Both the position numbers and the translations under genes were made by a program. Positions 1 through 39,764 of a stretch of 64,000 nucleotides of DNA are shown piece after piece (positions within the stretch are counted from its first letter, which is position 1; every line of letters begins with the position of its first letter). The notes under the pieces were generated by a model, which did no database searches, was not told the DNA's origin, and was given only the letters and a program-made list of their open reading frames with translations. This DNA comes from a virus (Duplodnaviria; Caudoviricetes), in IMG/VR virus record IMGVR_UViG_3300033074_000233, positions 64,001 to 128,000 of that record, one strand, 5' to 3'.

Positions 1-1080
1 GCAGTTATCCAAATTGCCACCAGAACCGGATATTACATACATTGCAACGTCGATGCGGTTACCTGAGGATGTAATAAAGTTTGGAGTCTGTATGTCAAAA
101 GGAACAGTACCCGTGTATAGGGTTATGTCTGAGTTGATACCTGATATCTGCAGGAAGGACTGCATGTTTGTCAGTACGGAAACTACTCCATAAGGTTCTA
201 TTACCAACGACGTTGATATAGAACTTATAGCAAAGTAGGACCCAAAGGATATAGGCATAGCAGCGGCTGTTGGACACGTAACCCGAATGTTGCCCTGTAC
301 CGCTAGGCTACACTGGATAAACGCACCCTGCTCAAATCCAACTAGAGTCAATGGTTTGGCGGTTCCACCTAAGCCTGGAATAGCGGATAAACCTAGCGCT
401 ACGTTACTGTCTAAGAATAGGAAACAGAAGGTTGCTGACTGAGAGCCTGACTTCTGAAAAGTCCCGTAGATTGCTTTAAGGCCATACTGTGGTAGCGTGG
501 CTCCCGAATACACATACTCAATAGCACGGTTGTAGATGAAGAACGGAAGTGCATACAGGTAATACTTGTACTGAACCGTTATCGGAGTCGTAGCCACACC
601 GCTGCTAAAAAATTGCAGCGTACCATACTGCAGGTCAATCTGTACCTCAGTCGCACTGGCTGGCGCAGTAGTCACAACCGTAAAGCCCGGAACAACAACT
701 GTTCCAGGAACGATAGGATTAGTTCCAGCGGCTGTAAGTGTTACCAGAAGACCATTAGACGGGGTTACACCCTGGTTAGTAACGCCAGACTGTGCCGAAG
801 GAAACACCACGTATTTCGGCAGGGCGTCCGAGTTCACAAAACAAGTGCCGCCAGTTGCTACCCGAATCGTTAGATACGGATAGTATCCTTCAAGTTTAAT
901 TGGCTTAGACAGCACAGTGCCATTGGGTATTTCCAGAATAACGTCAGCAGACGAGGAGAAGGAGTTCTGATCTAGCCAAGTCAGAAATTCTTCTACGGTA
1001 GTTGCTGGATACCCAGAGCCCAAAATAAAAGTCATTGTGCCGCGCTTGGTATAGGGCGCGACCACAGAATAAAGTGCCAT
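1..1080 (-). CDS. Virion structural / tail-fibre-like protein, runs off the window edge (partial)
   Basis: Manually translated 360-codon open frame from ATG at 1080 (MALYSVVAPYTKRGTMTFILGSGYPATTVEEF...), RBS-like GAGGG upstream; T/V/G/P-rich; in structural operon; absent from ORF track because no stop in window. Confidence 0.65.
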   Translation of the reverse strand, partial: MALYSVVAPYTKRGTMTFILGSGYPATTVEEFLTWLDQNSFSSSADVILEIPNGTVLSKPIKLEGYYPYLTIRVATGGTCFVNSDALPKYVVFPSAQSGVTNQGVTPSNGLLVTLTAAGTNPIVPGTVVVPGFTVVTTAPASATEVQIDLQYGTLQFFSSGVATTPITVQYKYYLYALPFFIYNRAIEYVYSGATLPQYGLKAIYGTFQKSGSQSATFCFLFLDSNVALGLSAIPGLGGTAKPLTLVGFEQGAFIQCSLAVQGNIRVTCPTAAAMPISFGSYFAISSISTSLVIEPYGVVSVLTNMQSFLQISGINSDITLYTGTVPFDIQTPNFITSSGNRIDVAMYVISGSGGNLDNC

Positions 1081-1082
1081 GA

Positions 1083-1127
1083 TTAAGCCCTCTGTTGAAT
1101 CCAGAGTTGCAGGGTGCCAGTGAAGTT
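1083..1127 (-). pseudogene. Orphaned original 3' end (NFTGTLQLWIQQRA*) of the 2118..2780 gene, displaced by the endonuclease insertion
   Basis: Reads aac ttc act ggc acc ctg caa ctc tgg att caa cag agg gct taa; 13/14 aa identical to the current C-terminus NFTGTLQLWIAQRA*. Confidence 0.9.
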
Positions 1128-2139
1128 ACGCATTTCCATATCTCCTATTTTGTGCTTTTCTCATGTTATTTTTCCAAGAGTCGGAGAATACCGGACGACT
1201 CTTTCCAGTCTTGGAAGCAGAAATAGCAGCACAGTGTTCTGACGAATAAGGTCCTCTCTTTATGCCCTTCTTGGCTAAACTTAGTTTTCTCTTATGCTCC
1301 TCAGAGAGTTTCTTACCTGAGTGTGCTTTCCTTAGTTTATTTTTAGTCTTGTCAGAACAGGTTCGACCTATATTTGACTCCGATATTTTAGTTCTATGCT
1401 CAGCGGAAAGTTTTTTGCCTCTTTTCGACTCGGAAATTTTGTCTTTAATTTCCTGAGACATAGGTGCGCGTTCTTTCGCTTTCTGACTTAGTTTTCTACG
1501 ATGCTCGGAACTGAAGGTGTGACCCGTTAAACCGCCACCACCTTCTACCTTATTAAGTAACGGACCTGTACCTGATACTTTCTTTCCAATACAGGCTACA
1601 AGTTTTCTTTCTAGGCTCAAGGCTTCACGATCAGTAAGATCGCTTTGGATTATCTTGTATACTGGTGTTAGCCCTGCAGACTGTATTTTAGTTAGGAGTT
1701 TATTCAGTGGATAGTTTTCTTTCCTAGATTCATGGTGTTGCAGCCTATTTCCAGAACCTTTACCAATATAGATAGGTTTATTTGGAAATATCCAAGTTAC
1801 GTTGTCTGTATCCTTATATAGGAATGGACCTATTTTTCTCGGGTCCTGTACTATGTAGGTATAGAAGTGAGTCAACGGATACTTCTTATGCTTTATGGTT
1901 TCTAGTCTGGACGCTAGATCATCCGCGTTGTCTTCTGAGAGTAGTCCTTTAATGACTCGTATACCCAAATTTTGGTAGCCAACTTGGATGAACCTGTTCT
2001 TGGATTTTCTTACGTCCTTTAGTTTTCCAGAGAAAAACCTAAGAGGCTTGTGCTTAAGAAGGTGCTCGTCAACAGCGTATTTGCCAGGATTAGACAGGTC
2101 AACTACGCACCAAACAATTAGGCTCTTTGTGCTATCCAT
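1126..2139 (-). mobile_element. Free-standing GIY-YIG homing endonuclease with NUMOD3-type repeats
   Basis: FYTY...PIYIGKG.GNR, EALSLE, LLN.VEGG motifs; C-terminal SxEH(K/R)xK(L/I)S repeats; AT-richer than flanks. Confidence 0.9.
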
Positions 2140-2780
2140 AACTGCAAAGTTCCTGTAAAATTTTGGGAGGTAACAACGTCATTCAGGTACATGATGTACG
2201 CGCCGTTCGGATTAGGCGTACCTGCTACATCGCATATACGGAACTTCTGGCCAGCAGCATTACTCGGCGCGGTGACTTGGTCGTTGGTCAGTGCAAACAG
2301 AGCAACGTCCTCTACCTGTACTTTGGCCAGATCAGTGACCGTGTAGCCAATAGGTGCGATGCGCGATAGCATCGGGAACGTGACCAAGTGGCGTGGAATA
2401 GTGTAGTCCAAGGCATCCCCCGAGTTCGCAAGTCTGATGATTGTTACTGTGGAAGTTTTCGTTCCAGGATTATACAGAGTGAGTGATCCAACCTGTGTCG
2501 TGGTAACGAACATAGTCTGGTTGGTCATTGTCACAGGCGCGTTGGCTTCTATCTGCGTTGTAATCGTGATTGGGTATTTGCTATATAGAGCCACACCTAC
2601 TGTACCAACGATTTCGGAAACAATCATCGTGGAGTCAGGTGGAACGGAAAGAGTACGCTCGGCAATCATGCCAAGGTCTTCGGTAATGGCTGAACGAACT
2701 GCGAGCAAGTTCCTGCGTAGTTTTTCGTCCGCAGAGTATATACGCAGGTCAAGTGCCAGTGTCTTGGCGTTGGTAGTCAT
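2118..2780 (-). CDS. Putative virion structural protein
   Basis: 220 aa, T/V-rich, in head-neck operon. Confidence 0.6.
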   Translation of the reverse strand: MTTNAKTLALDLRIYSADEKLRRNLLAVRSAITEDLGMIAERTLSVPPDSTMIVSEIVGTVGVALYSKYPITITTQIEANAPVTMTNQTMFVTTTQVGSLTLYNPGTKTSTVTIIRLANSGDALDYTIPRHLVTFPMLSRIAPIGYTVTDLAKVQVEDVALFALTNDQVTAPSNAAGQKFRICDVAGTPNPNGAYIMYLNDVVTSQNFTGTLQLWIAQRA

Positions 2781-2783
2781 CTT

Positions 2784-3599
2784 CTATTCCTCTTCGGCGG
2801 AATCATCAAGGGTTTTTATCTCAAGGATAATTTTTTCCGTCTTAGTAGTCAAGTACGGATCGTCGTTTGGAATCTCAACGTAATTCGGTTCACGGCCAAG
2901 TTCCTGTTGTCTACTTATAGTCTCTCCAATGGTTTCACCCGGAGAAACAAGCACAGGACCAATTACGATGTTGCGGAAGATCGGATATTTTTCAACGTCT
3001 ACTATGGCTTTGTTCTCGGAGAAGTAACCTTTAATCTTGATGGTGCCTAGCATTTCGTAGTTGTTCGGAATATCTATCGTGTTGTCCTTTTCAGGTGTTG
3101 CCAGACTGGTATCTAGTTCAACCTGAATGGAAATAGCCACACCATCATACTTGACGTTGAAGTTCATATTCTTTCTTACTGCGGCAAACATCCAAGCATT
3201 AACGAAAGACATGGATTGCCAGAAATCGTTTGTGAGGAAAGACACCTCACACATCATGTTCACAGGAATAATTATGTGGCGATTATACGTGGTGAGGCTG
3301 TCGTTTGCCGATCCGTAAGTTCCCATACGCAGCATTGACTTGGCATTATATGAATCATTGCCCTGTGGTATTTCTACGCTGGTCATCCTCAGAAACAAAT
3401 ATGGGTACTGAAAAGTACCTGATTGTTCCTGAATCTGTTTCAGGATATGCCATTTGTCTGAGGTAGAAATGAACTTAGGTGTTATTGCGGAATTTGTACT
3501 TCCAGCATCCGTTGCCTCGGTATCAACCGTGGAACTAAATGCTTTGGCCAAATACTGTAATGCGCCTTGGAGAATTATTCTTTCGAGCGTCAAGTTCAC
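2784..3599 (-). CDS. Putative neck / tail-terminator (T4 gp15-like) protein
   Basis: YPYLFLR, PVNMMCEVSF, GTIKIKGY pattern; downstream of capsid genes. Confidence 0.5.
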   Translation of the reverse strand: MNLTLERIILQGALQYLAKAFSSTVDTEATDAGSTNSAITPKFISTSDKWHILKQIQEQSGTFQYPYLFLRMTSVEIPQGNDSYNAKSMLRMGTYGSANDSLTTYNRHIIIPVNMMCEVSFLTNDFWQSMSFVNAWMFAAVRKNMNFNVKYDGVAISIQVELDTSLATPEKDNTIDIPNNYEMLGTIKIKGYFSENKAIVDVEKYPIFRNIVIGPVLVSPGETIGETISRQQELGREPNYVEIPNDDPYLTTKTEKIILEIKTLDDSAEEE

Positions 3600-4492: not shown

Positions 4493-5578
4493 TTAGATAC
4501 GACGCGCCTTGGCTACCGAGCGGGAGTTGGCAATGACCATCGAGATCAGCTCGGTCATCCACCAGCCCTTACCAGGAACCTGTTCAATCGAACCATCAAT
4601 CGGGGTGCTGGAAACGCCACCACGATCAGTGTAGATACCGTGGTTAACGGAATCCGAGATGATGAACATTTCGCCCTGGTTCAGGACTTTGTGCTGCGGG
4701 TGACGGAACGCGTCGGTGTAAACGGTCATGCCCAGGATCGTACCCAGTTGACCAGTCAGCAACAGTTCGTGCTTGCTAACCGGGTCGATGATGGCAGCGA
4801 ACTGCGCGTCACCAACAATGTCGCCCCAGATATCGGTAGCGATCAGGTAAGACGAGGCAGCCAGGTTCCAGCGGGTTACCAGAGTCTTGAGCGCAACAAG
4901 TGCGGACGGGTTCATCGTGCCCACGATAGTCGTGAACTCGTTGGACACGCCAACAGTGTTGGTAGCAAGACGGTACCACAGACGGTCTTCTGCAACCATC
5001 ACACCTTCTTGGGCTTCTACGAACTTCTCTTCCAGAACATCACCAACAGACTGCTGGATTTCACGCTCCTCGATGAACGGACGAGCGTTGATGTAAAACT
5101 CCGGCGGGAAGTACATATTGTCACGGACGATCTGCGAGAACGTCTTGGTCGGTGCACCAGCAACGGTTGCAACACCGTTCTTGAGGCGCATCTTGACGTA
5201 CGGACGCTGACCTTGCGACAGTTCCTGGCGAGCCAGGAAGCGACGCATGAAACCTTCACGGTTCGCAGCGATGTACAGTTCGTCGGCCAGGGTAGCACCG
5301 AGTTCCTTGTGGGCATCGCCGCTGTTGAAGGCAGCAGTCAGCATTTGCTGGTGAACCTTAGCCTTCTCTTGACGACGCTCGGCTTCGGTTTCGGTGATGA
5401 CGGACGAGGTCTCAGCGGCAGCCAGCAAACGAGTGATCTGGCCAAGCAGATCCTTGTTGCTGTTCGCGTTGACTTCGCCATTGCGACCAATGGCGCGGGA
5501 TTCACCCTTGCCTAGGCGCAGTTCAGTTGCAACTACCGGCTGTTTGAACGAAACGCCAGTCATGTTCGGCTTTTTCAT
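4493..5578 (-). CDS. Major capsid protein (HK97 fold)
   Basis: 361 aa; pattern EDRLW...GQLGTILGMTVYTD...GWWMTELISMVIANSRSV; follows scaffold and decoration genes; high-expression codon bias; GGAG RBS. Confidence 0.85.
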   Translation of the reverse strand: MKKPNMTGVSFKQPVVATELRLGKGESRAIGRNGEVNANSNKDLLGQITRLLAAAETSSVITETEAERRQEKAKVHQQMLTAAFNSGDAHKELGATLADELYIAANREGFMRRFLARQELSQGQRPYVKMRLKNGVATVAGAPTKTFSQIVRDNMYFPPEFYINARPFIEEREIQQSVGDVLEEKFVEAQEGVMVAEDRLWYRLATNTVGVSNEFTTIVGTMNPSALVALKTLVTRWNLAASSYLIATDIWGDIVGDAQFAAIIDPVSKHELLLTGQLGTILGMTVYTDAFRHPQHKVLNQGEMFIISDSVNHGIYTDRGGVSSTPIDGSIEQVPGKGWWMTELISMVIANSRSVAKARRI

Positions 5579-5606: not shown

Positions 5607-6314
5607 TTAGATATCAAACACGAGGGCAGGAGTGGTCGTGCTCACGCCCGGTACTTCGATGATAACTGCGTTAGGAACCGCAGTTGCACCGCCGATCGTG
5701 TACAGACCATTCGCAGTCACCGTAAGAGCACCACCAGCCGACCAGTCTACACTGGTATCGAACTCAGTGGTAGCAATGCGGCCCTTACGGATGACACCCA
5801 TGGTGCCAAGCGTCAGGTTCGCAGCGCCGCCCGGCGGAATGTCACCTTGTACCGACAGAGCCTCGACCGTGGTCGGGCTGTAGCGATACGAAAGTGCCAG
5901 GGTCTTGCCTGCGCCGTGATGAGCGTAAGCAAGCGTCAGGACGTTGCCAGTCAGGTTGTACTCGTTGGCTGCGGCCGGAACCGGAACCGAAACGGTGATG
6001 GCCTGAGCCGTGGTGTTGTCGTAGAAACGGATGTTGCCAGTCGGGGTACGAGCCAGCGTGATGCTGAACGTAGCCGGTGCCGGAGCAATGGTCGGCGAAA
6101 CAACGCTTTCCATCATCGGCAGGTACAGCAGGGTCAGTTGCTGAGCCATCGAAGCACCGTAGTACTGGCCAGCACCAACAAGGCTCGGCTTAACGCCGAA
6201 AACGCCACCGGTGTAGTCAGAAACAAGGGCTTGACCTTCAGCAGTTACCGTGAAGCCGATTTGCACCGGAACTTCAACGGACTCAACGATACGAGTCTTA
6301 TCGAATAGCAGCAT
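5607..6314 (-). CDS. Capsid decoration / cement protein
   Basis: 235 aa G/T/V/A-rich, between scaffold and MCP. Confidence 0.65.
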   Translation of the reverse strand: MLLFDKTRIVESVEVPVQIGFTVTAEGQALVSDYTGGVFGVKPSLVGAGQYYGASMAQQLTLLYLPMMESVVSPTIAPAPATFSITLARTPTGNIRFYDNTTAQAITVSVPVPAAANEYNLTGNVLTLAYAHHGAGKTLALSYRYSPTTVEALSVQGDIPPGGAANLTLGTMGVIRKGRIATTEFDTSVDWSAGGALTVTANGLYTIGGATAVPNAVIIEVPGVSTTTPALVFDI

Positions 6315-15122: not shown

Positions 15123-17051
15123 ATGGGTGTCAAAGTAAACAAGAAAGATAAGGTCGAGGCCAAACAAAAACAAGGTCTAGCATACGGCGCAGAACATATA
15201 CAGTGGCAGAAAGGCCTTCAAGGTATTCGTAAACGCCCGGAAATGTACATCCACTCGGTTGACTCCGATGGTGTATGGACTCTAACGCGAGAAGCAGGCG
15301 ACAACGCCGCCGACGAAAACGGTGCTGGTCGTAACTCCTTTGTACACATTTGCCAAGACACCGATGATTCCATCTGGGTGATCGACCACGGGCAAGGCAT
15401 TCCAGTAGCACCTTATATTGATCCAGAGACAAAGAAGAAAGACGGTCGGACCACATTAGAGATTATCCTCAGCGAAACACACGCTGGCGGCAAATTCGGA
15501 TCGGGTGCTTACAAGGGCTCCCGAGGTACACACGGTGTAGGCGTAAAAGCCACGAACGCACTCTCCAGCCTGTTTCAGGTATGGACCTGCTTCAAAGGCC
15601 AGTGGTGGAACATCGAGTTCTCACGGGGCAAACTCAAGAAAGCACCAACAAAGGTGTCCAAGCCGCCGAAACTCCCACACGGCGCTGCGACATTGAAGAA
15701 GGGCACGGTTGTCCGCTTCATTCCTGACGACCAAATCTTCCACAAGGGTTCCAAGTTCGAGCCTGCACGTGCGGCAGAGTGGTGCGAACTGACTGCTTAC
15801 ATGCAAGCCGGCTTCGTTGTCAAACTCACCGACAAGAAGGGCAAGACCAAAGAGTGGTGCTTCAAGAACGGTTCCAAGGAATATCTGGATCGTAAGATCA
15901 AGAAACTGGAAGCCAACCAACTAGGCAAAGACTGTCTGATTCAGGAAGGCTGCTACAACATCGCGGTTGCCTTCACAGATTACGACGGCATTGCTCTCGC
16001 TGGTTTCACCAACGGCCTGAGCAACCCTGACGGCGGTACACACATTGACACCTTCTATAAGGCTCTCGCCAAGTCTTTGGAAGCGTACAAAGGCAAATCC
16101 AAGTACAACCCCTCGGACCTTCGTGAAGGCATAATTGGATTCATCAACGTGCGCCTTGACGAACCTAAGTTTGGTTCGCAGACCAAAGAGAAACTGGTAG
16201 ACGAAACACCCACGAAGCAATATGCCGAAGTGCTCAAGGGTCTTACCAAGTTCTTCGACAACAACAAAGGCCTTGCCAAGAAACTGACGCAACGTGCTGC
16301 CGAACTCAAAGGTCTCAAGGACCAGTTCGCCGATAACAAGAAGGTACTCAAGGAACTCAGCGGTGCTGCGCGTAAAGGCAAGTCCTTCGCATCGAAGCAT
16401 GCCCGTTGTGACTGTGCACCTGAACTGCGCGAACTGTTCCTTGTTGAGGGTGAGTCTGCATCTGGTACCGCGAAGCAAGGTCGCAATCCTGCGTATCAGG
16501 AGATTCTTCCACTCAAGGGTAAGATTCTGAACGTAATGAAGGGCGGTGCCAACAAGAAGGATAAGGCGTTCGATTCCGAAGAGGTCATGAACATCCTCAT
16601 TGGTATCGGATACGATCCGTCCTCGAAAGCACCTCTGGACAATCTACGTGTGGGCAAACTGATCCTGCTTGCTGACCCAGACCCAGACGGCAGACACATC
16701 AACACGCTGGAACTGACGCTGTTTGCCAAGTACCTTGCGGGCATCTACCAGAAAGGCACGGTGTACATCATCAACCTGCCTGAGTACGTGATGGAACACG
16801 GCGGCAAAAACTACTTCGGCGATAGTCCGAAAGACGTAGAGAAGTCATTGCCGAAAGGTGTAAAGTTGAAGAACGTGCAGCACCTTAAGGGTCTTGGCGA
16901 AATGACCGCCTTGCAGTTGAGGGAACTTGCGTTCAACCCTGATACACGCAAACTATTGAAAGTCGCTGCACCAAGTAAAGAGGATATGAAGGAGTTCAGC
17001 CTCCTCATGTCGGACAACACTGACTACCGTAGAAAGTTGCTCGGAGTATAA
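15123..17051 (+). CDS. gyrB: Type IIA topoisomerase subunit B (GyrB/ParE-like)
   Basis: [59 protein letters not shown]. Confidence 0.95.
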
Positions 17052-36732: not shown

Positions 36733-37059
36733 ATGAAAGAGTGGGCGATCAAAAATGCTATTCCTATTGCCTGTGTCCTTGTGCTACTACTTGCAGGATA
36801 TTGGGCAATAGGAAAAGTCGATTCCATGCTGGAAACCCGTAACTCCGAATTACGGGGTCAGCTCAAGGCTGATATGGGCGAAGCGCAGGAAGCACTTAAA
36901 ACAGCCGTAGCGGATGCTGAGAAACATATCAAGGAAGCGAAAGCCGCAGAGAACAACGCGAACACTAATGCCGCGAACGGCAAGGGTAAGACTGATGCCG
37001 CAGCGAAAAAGAAACTGGCCGATATGGTCAACGAATGGAACACAGGAGCGACACCATGA
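36733..37059 (+). CDS. i-spanin (Rz-like)
   Basis: N-terminal TM + Ala-rich coiled coil. Confidence 0.6.
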   Translation: MKEWAIKNAIPIACVLVLLLAGYWAIGKVDSMLETRNSELRGQLKADMGEAQEALKTAVADAEKHIKEAKAAENNANTNAANGKGKTDAAAKKKLADMVNEWNTGATP

Positions 37060-37379
37060 AACACATTGAAACGGCAATAGCAAAGCGTTTGGAAAAGGCA
37101 ACCCCAAAGAGGTCACGAGTACAAGTAATACTTACCAACGGCGTGTCCTTTGAGAACGCGGTTGAAAAAGCTTTATCCTCTGTTCTTATTAGTAAGAACT
37201 ACGAAAAGATTATGGGGCATCGGGTCGTTACTTATTACTTGGACAAGACGCTTTCTGAAAAGAAACTAGAAACTCTAGCCTCGAAAATATCCTCCAAGAT
37301 AGGGGCAAACCACAAGAGCCAACATAGTCTTACAGCCGAGACCGCTGATCGTGTAGTTTTCAATTCGGCCTCGTTGTAA
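37056..37379 (+). CDS. MKHIE-leader protein
   Basis: MKHIETAIAKRLEKA; AGGAG RBS. Confidence 0.7.
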   Translation: MKHIETAIAKRLEKATPKRSRVQVILTNGVSFENAVEKALSSVLISKNYEKIMGHRVVTYYLDKTLSEKKLETLASKISSKIGANHKSQHSLTAETADRVVFNSASL

Positions 37380-37412
37380 TTAAACAAGGTCCCAAGTAAG
37401 CAGAGGTTATCC

Positions 37413-38643: not shown

Positions 38644-38651
38644 GGTTGCCA

Positions 38652-39764
38652 ATGAAGCACATTGAGACTGCGGTGCTTGCGAGGCTTGAAGTCGCGTTTG
38701 CACCCGCAAAGAAAGCGGATAAGCCAAAGCCTAAGTATGGCTCAGATAAGTGGTGGAAGTCTCTGAGCAAGAATGAACAGAAGCAGTATCTCAAGGAGCA
38801 CCCGAAGTCAAAGTATAACCCAGCCAATAAGTTGAAGAAATCCAAGAACAAACTGGTTAAGAAGAAAAAGCCTCTTATTCCAGGTGTTGTTCCAGGTAAA
38901 GGCAAGCCACACACTGAGCATCAAATCCGAATGGATGAAAAGCGGAAGATGCGTCAGGCCCAATTACGCAAGGACAAAGAGCGTAAGAAGAAAGAAGCGA
39001 AGAAGAAAGACGAACTCCGCAAGAAGGCTGAGAAACGTGCTCAGGATGAGAAGAAGGCAAAGAAGAAAGAGAAACAGCCTAAGTTGACTGAGGCCCAGAA
39101 GAAGGCTAAACAGGAAGAAGAACGCTTGGCTGAGCAGTACAAGAATACCAAGAAGCCTGAGGACTTTGAGGCCCTTGAGGAACATAAGACAGCCTCACGT
39201 ACTGCCAAGTTTATTGATTGGTATGAGGAAACCGTCAACAAGGCTGTTGACAAGATAAAGCGTGGTACCCTTGAACGCATCGGCAACGTGATTGGCGCTG
39301 ACCTGGAAGACATGCTGGTGGCCAAAGATAGTCATAGGCCTCCCTCCGTTAGGCTGTACGAAGCCCTTAATAAGGCAATCGAGCGTAACGAAGCTGAACT
39401 CGACCAGATCAATGAGAAAATTGCTAAGGCTAAGGATCAACTCAAAATTGCTAAGGGCAAGAAGGATAAGGCAAAGAATCCAGATAGCATAGATGGATGG
39501 AATCAGAAGATTGTAAGCACCAAAGAACTTCTTGGCCGCTTGGGTGTGCAGCGTAAGATATTGATGAAAAAAGTAGAGGAGGGTCACAAGCAGCGCGATC
39601 CACTTAAGGCACGTGCTGATCGTTACCACATCAAGGAAGGTGAGGAAAGAGAGAAGGTTCGTGATCTTAGGTCACTTGGTATAAAGACAGGCCGGGCCAA
39701 GAAGGGTGGGAAAACAAAACCCACCAAGCCTAAGTTGCACAAACTGAAACGCGCTAAACGCTAA
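38652..39764 (+). CDS. MKHIE-leader, HPxSK-module, Lys-rich coiled-coil protein
   Basis: MKHIETAVLARLEVA; WWKSLSKNEQKQYLKEHPKSKY. Confidence 0.75.
   Translation: MKHIETAVLARLEVAFAPAKKADKPKPKYGSDKWWKSLSKNEQKQYLKEHPKSKYNPANKLKKSKNKLVKKKKPLIPGVVPGKGKPHTEHQIRMDEKRKMRQAQLRKDKERKKKEAKKKDELRKKAEKRAQDEKKAKKKEKQPKLTEAQKKAKQEEERLAEQYKNTKKPEDFEALEEHKTASRTAKFIDWYEETVNKAVDKIKRGTLERIGNVIGADLEDMLVAKDSHRPPSVRLYEALNKAIERNEAELDQINEKIAKAKDQLKIAKGKKDKAKNPDSIDGWNQKIVSTKELLGRLGVQRKILMKKVEEGHKQRDPLKARADRYHIKEGEEREKVRDLRSLGIKTGRAKKGGKTKPTKPKLHKLKRAKR

Follow-up and report, generated by a model that had tools for sequence, protein, structure and literature searches.

We analyzed a locus in the late-gene block of a jumbo phage (Duplodnaviria; Caudoviricetes), in which a free-standing homing endonuclease gene lies at the 3' end of a conserved gene, here called gene A, and the end of gene A is present twice, once fused to its own gene and once downstream of the endonuclease gene. 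The window, i.e., the whole stretch of 64,000 nucleotides (nt) that was analyzed, corresponds to bases 64,001-128,000 of the 215,992-base IMG/VR virus record IMGVR_UViG_3300033074_000233, with a completeness estimate of 84%. The minus strand carries every feature of the locus discussed here, and these features, given as window positions, are:

2780..2118, minus strand: gene A, encoding a conserved beta-rich protein of 220 amino acids (aa), downstream of the major capsid gene (open reading frame, ORF, and homologues).
2118..2168, minus strand: replacement gene end, codons 205-220 and stop, S-Q-NFTGTLQLWIAQRA, delimited by its divergence from the endonuclease-free relative L003, by the GC content at third codon positions (GC3) and by being common to four tail-bearing alleles.
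2139..1126, minus strand: free-standing homing endonuclease gene, 337 aa (ORF; NUMOD3 PF07460; phrog_314).
1127..1083, minus strand: stranded native gene end, codons 207-220 and stop, NFTGTLQLWIQQRA, detached from gene A and recognized by its match to the L003 tail at 40 of 45 nt.
1083..1133, minus strand: possible mini-ORF of 16 codons, MRNFTGTLQLWIQQRA and stop, in the frame of the remnant, from reading of the sequence.
1088..1093, minus strand: Shine-Dalgarno sequence AGAGGG of gene B, inside the stranded tail and 7 nt before the ATG at 1080 (read from the sequence, with GAGGG at 1092-1088).
1..1080, minus strand: gene B, the downstream neighbor, which runs off the window (ORF, with ATG at 1080).

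Gene A ends in ...VVTSQNFTGTLQLWIAQRA followed by its stop codon, and the endonuclease gene starts within this end: its ATG is formed by TTA-TGG, which are gene A codons 214-215, and its first seven codons overlap the last seven codons and the stop of gene A in a different frame. At the other side, the endonuclease TAA (1128-1126) shares 2 nt with the AAC at the start of the second copy, NFTGTLQLWIQQRA, which comes right after the endonuclease stop, has its own stop 2 nt before the gene B ATG, and holds the gene B ribosome-binding site. The fused and the downstream copy are identical at 13 of 14 residues and at 30 of 45 bases; none of the 12 shared degenerate codons is spelled alike, and the longest stretch of exact identity between the copies is 5 nt. 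The initial annotation had reported both this duplication and the overlaps at the two ends of the endonuclease gene, and all of these can be read directly from the sequence.

A genome-wide scan of 904 ORF tails returned at least 12 of 14 identities only at this locus and in one cluster of tandem paralogues; the gene-end duplication is not due to chance. When codons were modelled as independent draws from genome usage, the probability that 12 of 12 codons differ was P = 0.0035-0.0076, and under the same model P = 0.026 was obtained for the 7 codons outside the endonuclease overlap alone. These values are only suggestive of non-random respelling because the case was chosen for being striking. 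The two copies also differ in composition, with a GC3 of 0.29 for the fused copy and 0.64 for the downstream copy, against 0.37 for the endonuclease and 0.54 for the host genes and the gene A body; the fused tail and the endonuclease are both AT-richer than the host genes.

An allele that lacks the endonuclease was found in L003, a JGI metagenome contig of 1,058 nt, whose gene A protein is 93% identical to that of the window. Its junction reads gtg acc caa caa aac ttc aca ggt acg ctg caa gtc tgg gtt caa cag agg gct TAA tc ATG gca. The gene A tail of L003 thus joins gene B directly, at the same junction as the stranded copy of the window, and the contig extends into the same gene B with a nucleotide identity of ~77-81%. 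In the window, the stranded tail is followed by TAATCATG and then by gene B, exactly as in L003, which has the gene B Shine-Dalgarno motif with identical sequence and spacing. The L003 tail matches the downstream copy at 40 of 45 nt and the fused copy at 30 of 45 nt. Presence of the AT-rich version in relatives without the endonuclease had been named in advance as the outcome that would speak against the annotation; the tail of L003 is the GC-richer, downstream-like one and speaks in its favor.

Comparison with L003 also revealed a sharp left boundary, with one mismatch in the 24 nt of codons 197-204 and 18 mismatches in the 48 nt of codons 205-220. All four tail-bearing alleles encode Ser at codon 205 (TCC), where every homologue that lacks the endonuclease has Gln (CAA), and divergence therefore sets in two codons upstream of the duplicated segment. 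On the right, the element ends exactly before AAC. An endonuclease-free allele had been predicted by the initial annotation and does exist, although with caa and not the predicted tcc at codon 205. More distant relatives, L002 (44%) and L004 (35%), likewise have no endonuclease, and in both of them gene A leads directly into the next gene. At the DNA level the fused tail is nearer to the tail of the AT-richer L002 (34 of 45 nt) than to the tail of its own lineage.

Two copies of the same 14 codons ~1 kb apart could also have come from a local tandem duplication of the gene end, with synonymous drift in place and an endonuclease landing between the copies later. Drift predicts the opposite of what we observed: the translated copy is the aberrant one (GC3 0.29 and 30 of 45 nt to L003), whereas the untranslated copy is native-like (GC3 0.64 and 40 of 45 nt) and still an open frame. 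Furthermore, 12 synonymous differences in 12 codons exceed the saturation expectation (P = 0.004-0.008), and the divergent tract begins at codon 205, outside the duplicated segment. We regard this origin as very improbable.

Many phage GIY-YIG endonucleases are encoded within introns (PMC2988022), and the downstream copy could accordingly be the true last exon of a gene interrupted by a group I intron, or the true extein of a gene interrupted by an intein. Gene A already has a complete tail and a stop at the insertion point. No Rfam family matched positions 800-2500 at E <= 1, and outside the endonuclease ORF the cassette has 23 nt upstream and none downstream. As for an intein, the endonuclease and gene A are read in different frames, and the Pfam search finds no Hint domain in it. 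The description of the element as intron-less and intein-less agrees with each of these observations, and an intron or intein is, of all the explanations weighed here, the one we find hardest to credit.

The endonuclease was assigned by several profiles. Its NUMOD3 match in Pfam (PF07460) scored 34.4 bits against a cutoff of 20.4, and in PHROGs it matched phrog_314, annotated as 'homing endonuclease', with E = 3e-18. As a single sequence it scored 18.8 bits against PF22945 (LEM-3-like GIY-YIG), under the cutoff of 27, and had no match to PF01541 in the Pfam search; PF22945 is present in its homologues. The family profile matches the GIY-YIG protein 9u75 in the PDB (E = 1e-8) and the UvrC GIY-YIG domain (1e-3). 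Three regions of the protein were distinguished:

1870..2139, minus strand: N-terminal extension of 90 aa, upstream of the GIY motif at which the homologue consensus starts.
1540..1869, minus strand: GIY-YIG catalytic core, residues 91-200, from conserved residues, the family profile and the AlphaFold2 model.
1150..1521 (bounds approximate), minus strand: array of ~7 NUMOD3-like helices (S-x-E-H-R/K-x-K-I/L-S), from Pfam, repeats in the translation and the AlphaFold2 model.

Within the core, Y93 and Y95 (YTY), Y124 and G126 (YIGKG), R132, E177 and N196 are invariant or nearly so among 25 homologues. AlphaFold2 modelled residues 91-200 with a predicted local distance difference test score (pLDDT) of ~90, and the best Foldseek matches of the model were 9u75 and 9u7u, with a root-mean-square deviation of 3.0 Å over 105 columns and a weak E = 2.4e-3. 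The model shows seven NUMOD3-like helices at residues 211-333, which presumably form the DNA-binding region. The N-terminal extension is missing in most of the 25 homologues and is retained without insertions or deletions (indels) in four close alleles. Its low-confidence model has a beta-beta-alpha-beta-alpha order, the same as that of the GIY-YIG core, and it may be a degenerate second nuclease domain; BLASTP of the extension against the catalytic core detected no similarity.

Three further 337-aa alleles of the endonuclease (P0014, P0139 and P0140) are 82-84% identical to the window enzyme, and the final 19 residues are invariant across the four alleles. Distant relatives of the enzyme in L005 and L006 (31-32% identical to the window enzyme) directly follow a 709-aa gene. 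In L005 the tail of this gene has no duplicate downstream, with scores below those of shuffled controls, and because of this the end-replacement layout is not a property of the whole endonuclease family.

To characterize the occupied alleles, we used the 90%-identity cluster of gene A proteins, which has six members. Four of them, the window protein, P0134, P0135 and P0136, are tail-bearing, i.e., have S205 and the AQRA tail, while the other two, P0137 and P0001, have the native QQ...VWVQQRA tail, with the C-terminal residues of P0137 matching the L003 translation. Presence or absence of the replacement tail is polymorphic among gene A alleles that are at least 92% identical. The anatomy of the locus, the empty allele, this presence/absence polymorphism and the intact catalytic residues are directly established.

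Statistical analysis of these six alleles, at the protein level only, indicated that tail-bearing and tail-less alleles show fixed differences from each other only in the half of gene A that adjoins the element: 0 of 15 polymorphic sites in residues 1-130 are fixed, whereas in residues 131-220 this holds for 8 of 11 (Fisher P = 1e-4). With the tail left out, 4 of 7 sites in residues 131-204 are fixed (V133I, A163N, A/S175V and I196L; P = 0.005), and within the tail alone 4 of 4 are. It looks as though ~90 codons beside the element are carried along with it and the more distant half of gene A is shuffled, a pattern like that of co-conversion. Similar co-conversion has been described for T4 endonucleases (PMC2988022) and for FBA1 beside the WHO elements of yeasts (PMC7282813).

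Several points weigh against reading the locus as a homing element. The co-conversion test itself is small, as the number of alleles and its protein level imply. The linkage of P0134 and P0136 to an endonuclease rests on protein sequences and on equal contig sizes, the longest contigs of P0134 and endonuclease P0014 both being 11,949 nt and those of P0136 and endonuclease P0140 both being 2,551 nt. The endonuclease alleles differ by 16-18%, against ~4% for gene A, and the insertion is therefore not recent. A single old insertion, vertically inherited and accompanied by ordinary recombination upstream, could also account for the data, since all occupied alleles fall in one 90% cluster. Taken to its end, such a history would make the locus a fossil: one illegitimate event with a piece of a foreign allele, inherited vertically after homing was lost, with the duplication left as a functionless scar. 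The divergence among the endonuclease alleles and the restriction of tail-bearing alleles to that cluster speak for this history, and we found no member of the endonuclease clade in any other gene context. It accounts less well for the four endonuclease alleles, which retain the 337-codon frame without indels and every catalytic residue, for a presence/absence polymorphism among alleles at least 92% identical, and for fixed differences confined to the gene A half next to the element. We consider a fossil unlikely.

Based on these observations, the locus is probably an end-replacement homing cassette, in which a GIY-YIG/NUMOD3 gene moves along with a divergent version of the 16 codons that end its host gene, and we hold this reading with considerable confidence. 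The class of element proposed by the initial annotation was borne out in its anatomy: with neither intron nor intein, the element occupies the 3' end of a conserved gene, to which it gives a new end while the native one is left stranded. We infer that the enzyme cleaves, where it cuts, that occupied alleles are immune and that mobility is ongoing, and the cycle would proceed as follows. During co-infection, the enzyme would cut endonuclease-free alleles near codons 205-207. The break would be repaired from the occupied genome, the left homology arm being the upstream body of gene A and the right one the stranded native tail together with gene B. The product in the recipient would be an intact gene A, made of its own body and the donor tail, followed by the endonuclease and a native-type tail downstream. 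At the first insertion the right end must have been joined illegitimately, e.g., through copying from a donor whose endonuclease gene overlapped the end of the host gene, and later spread could rely on ordinary homology. Such a mechanism has experimental support in the analogous WHO elements (PMC7282813) and also in the Allomyces case, as the latter is cited in PMC3630166.

The replacement tail serves the cassette in several ways. It keeps gene A whole without splicing, and the fused gene A is indeed full length, as its full-length homologues have 217-224 aa. It also supplies the endonuclease ATG (TTA-TGG) and a possible Shine-Dalgarno sequence (ACA-GGA): the Leu codon TTA is rare (5% of Leu codons) and yields the ATG only together with TGG, and ACA-GGA gives AGGA 11 nt upstream of that ATG. 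With 5 nt as the longest shared run, the tail may be too unlike the remnant for recombination between the two to remove the element, and it has probably ceased to match the target of the enzyme. The remnant, for its part, retains the ribosome-binding site of gene B. It may also be translated. An AGGAG (1146-1142) lies within the last codons of the endonuclease (AAT AGG AGA TAT GGA AAT GCG), 8 nt upstream of the ATG of the mini-ORF, and the mini-ORF stops 2 nt before the gene B ATG; by its position, it could preserve the translational coupling that gene A gives gene B in the empty allele.

At least four roles are conceivable for the respelled tail, which may act in immunity, against deletion between the direct repeats, or in carrying expression signals for the endonuclease, or may simply be a foreign allele, and the data do not separate these roles. 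For immunity there is an analogy in that 33% of synonymous changes in the WHO6 recognition site conferred resistance (bioRxiv 10.64898/2026.08.13.744650). Recoding could instead serve mainly to prevent deletion and to provide start signals, and not to evade self-cleavage, given that the insertion already splits the target. This is consistent with the 5-nt limit on shared runs, with the creation of an ATG from the rare TTA plus TGG and of AGGA from ACA-GGA, with the seven dual-coding codons, and with the empty-site sequence being recreated at neither junction. Against it stands the non-synonymous Q205S, just upstream of the duplication, which is fixed in all occupied alleles, absent elsewhere, and resembles resistance substitutions mapped in WHO targets (bioRxiv 10.64898/2026.08.13.744650). 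In addition, GIY-YIG enzymes such as I-TevI bind and cut at separate positions (PMC2988022), and the insertion alone may spare recognition. We view recoding chiefly for these other purposes as possible but somewhat doubtful.

A stronger version of the end-replacement reading holds that this is a regular and hitherto undescribed third route, next to introns and inteins, of phage homing into coding genes and that the cassette is purpose-built for it. Several features would belong to that claim: a start codon and a Shine-Dalgarno sequence that may have been placed in the replacement tail; Q205S and the full synonymous respelling, which may give immunity and block deletion between the repeats; and the stranded tail, which may be kept as a translated mini-ORF that preserves the coupling to gene B. 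As a joint claim we put it forward tentatively, with more doubt than belief.

Gene A lies downstream of the capsid genes of the late-gene block, in which the order is virion structural protein, major head protein, acidic protein, 271-aa protein, gene A, endonuclease and gene B. The first two genes of this order are:

6314..5607, minus strand: virion structural protein (phrog_16710).
5578..4493, minus strand: major head protein (phrog_2522, E = 1e-78).

Scans for promoters and terminators gave only background-level signals. The homologues of gene A comprise twelve proteins of 217-224 aa and one 148-aa fragment. No family or function match to gene A was obtained in Pfam, PHROGs, the PDB sequence profile search, Foldseek against PDB and BFVD, or the ESM Atlas. 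Calling it a 'structural gene', as had been done initially, has its position beside the capsid genes as sole basis, with no family or functional match. The AlphaFold2 model of the protein (pLDDT 71) is a beta-sandwich and resembles uncharacterised proteins of the jumbo phages Ralstonia phiRSL1 and Burkholderia BcepSaruman, with a template modelling score (TM-score) of 0.66-0.70 on the target; this modelled likeness hints at the wider kinship of the phage. Neither the locus (megablast) nor gene A (tblastn) had a match among 50,697 phage records, and as a single query gene A had none in the IMG/VR scans, where an alignment query retrieved the distant L002 only. The scan of GTDB genomes gave no match.

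A second case of end replacement was found in the same genome, 31 kb upstream and outside the window, in the locus L008 (genome 30800-33400). Its features, in positions of that locus, are:

2228..1782, minus strand: gene of 148 aa.
1687..746, minus strand: HNH-type endonuclease, 313 aa, between the 148-aa gene and the relic.
774..625, minus strand: relic of 49 codons, in which 15 of 31 residues match the gene tail (YSRL..ME.E.KGE...EFA).

The stop of the relic overlaps the start of the next gene. This HNH gene starts 94 nt past the stop of the 148-aa gene with no overlap, in contrast to the GIY-YIG locus. A match of the genome-wide scan, at window 15921-16478, was rejected as an antisense frame within a 642-aa gene.

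Two other repeats were noted in the genome. At window 37036-37380 and 38646-39764 on the plus strand (336-680 and 1947-3065 of locus L009), two genes separated by 1.5 kb have an N-terminal motif in common, MKHIETAIAKRLEKA and MKHIETAVLARLEVA. This pair (genome 101,056 and 102,646) was rejected as a case of end replacement, with no endonuclease between the genes and a lipoprotein-like and a 242-aa gene there; the N-termini may be paralogous or may stem from an old duplication of the start of a gene. At genome 201494-204851 on the plus strand, outside the window, three tandem ORFs have 45-residue C-terminal stretches that are 75-82% identical (…PVP.PVTLPVRV.V). These ORFs overlap a long minus-strand ORF (203726-205597), and because of this overlap some of them may be antisense frames of repeated tail-fibre-like genes.

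The arrangement at gene A has its closest parallel in fungal mitochondria, where mORF 'gene hybrids' with a carboxy-terminal duplication have been described for atp6, atp9, cox2 and nad3 of Glomus (Beaudet et al. 2013, PMC3630166). Allomyces macrogynus atp6 is a further hybrid of this kind, as cited there from Paquin et al. 1994; through that citation, the fungal atp6 precedent named in the initial annotation is a real one. In both systems the order is gene body, foreign C-terminus, endonuclease ORF and native C-terminus, and the host protein sequence is nearly unchanged. Nucleotide identity to an endonuclease-free relative is 91-98% for the native and 64-81% for the inserted ends in Glomus, and 89% and 67%, respectively, at the phage locus. 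The Glomus atp9 case also has a GIY-YIG enzyme. The phage locus differs in being in a jumbo phage and not an organelle, in a duplicated piece of just 14-16 codons, in having the endonuclease start codon inside the replacement tail in another frame, and in a remnant that also holds the ribosome-binding site of the next gene.

The second parallel is that of the WHO elements at the yeast aldolase gene FBA1 (Coughlan et al. 2020, PMC7282813; Osborne et al. 2026, bioRxiv 10.64898/2026.08.13.744650). When a WHO element homes, a resistant allelic variant takes the place of the 3' end of an essential or conserved gene, and the displaced end, now downstream, provides a homology arm; evolution of the host gene is discordant between its 5' and 3' parts, and WHO resistance substitutions lie at the target. 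The differences are considerable: WHO enzymes are LAGLIDADG/intein-derived zinc-finger proteins that act in a eukaryotic nucleus and in meiosis, and WHO genes accumulate in clusters, whereas the phage locus has a single GIY-YIG gene and a single remnant. For WHO, there is experimental proof of cleavage and of its allele specificity (PMC7282813), and the phage locus is known from sequence alone. We rejected membership in the WHO protein family (HO/VDE homology), the enzyme being of the GIY-YIG/NUMOD3 type; the phage cassette shares the WHO way of working and not the WHO family.

Among phages, the free-standing Seg (GIY-YIG) and Mob (HNH) genes of T4-like phages spread by 'intronless homing' (Edgell, Gibb and Belfort 2010, PMC2988022). 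They resemble the present element as free-standing phage genes, Seg with the same nuclease type, that spread by a double-strand break with co-conversion of flanking markers and overlap or embed the expression signals of their neighbors. Unlike it, they are found between genes or interrupt a gene, which then yields two polypeptides, as with mobE in Aeh1 nrdA and mobA in gene 60. The review of T4 mobile DNA covers introns, intergenic free-standing genes and split genes, with no replaced gene end (PMC2988022), and the survey of ICP1 does not describe one either. Our full-text literature searches found no phage report of the end-replacement layout, with incomplete coverage that is not proof of absence. 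In the WHO preprint, end replacement is treated as a third homing category, 'considerably more rare' than introns and inteins, with descriptions from yeast only (bioRxiv 10.64898/2026.08.13.744650); the fungal mitochondrial cases are the other known set.

The gene A locus provides a clean phage example of end replacement, with an empty allele, several occupied alleles and a signature like that of co-conversion. Its presumed target is short and defined and lies beside a compact GIY-YIG/NUMOD3 enzyme gene. Stranded gene ends of this kind are easily mis-annotated as small ORFs or intergenic DNA, and host genes may have chimeric ends that lead to misleading phylogenies. Together with the second case in the same genome, the locus suggests that the strategy is common in large phages.

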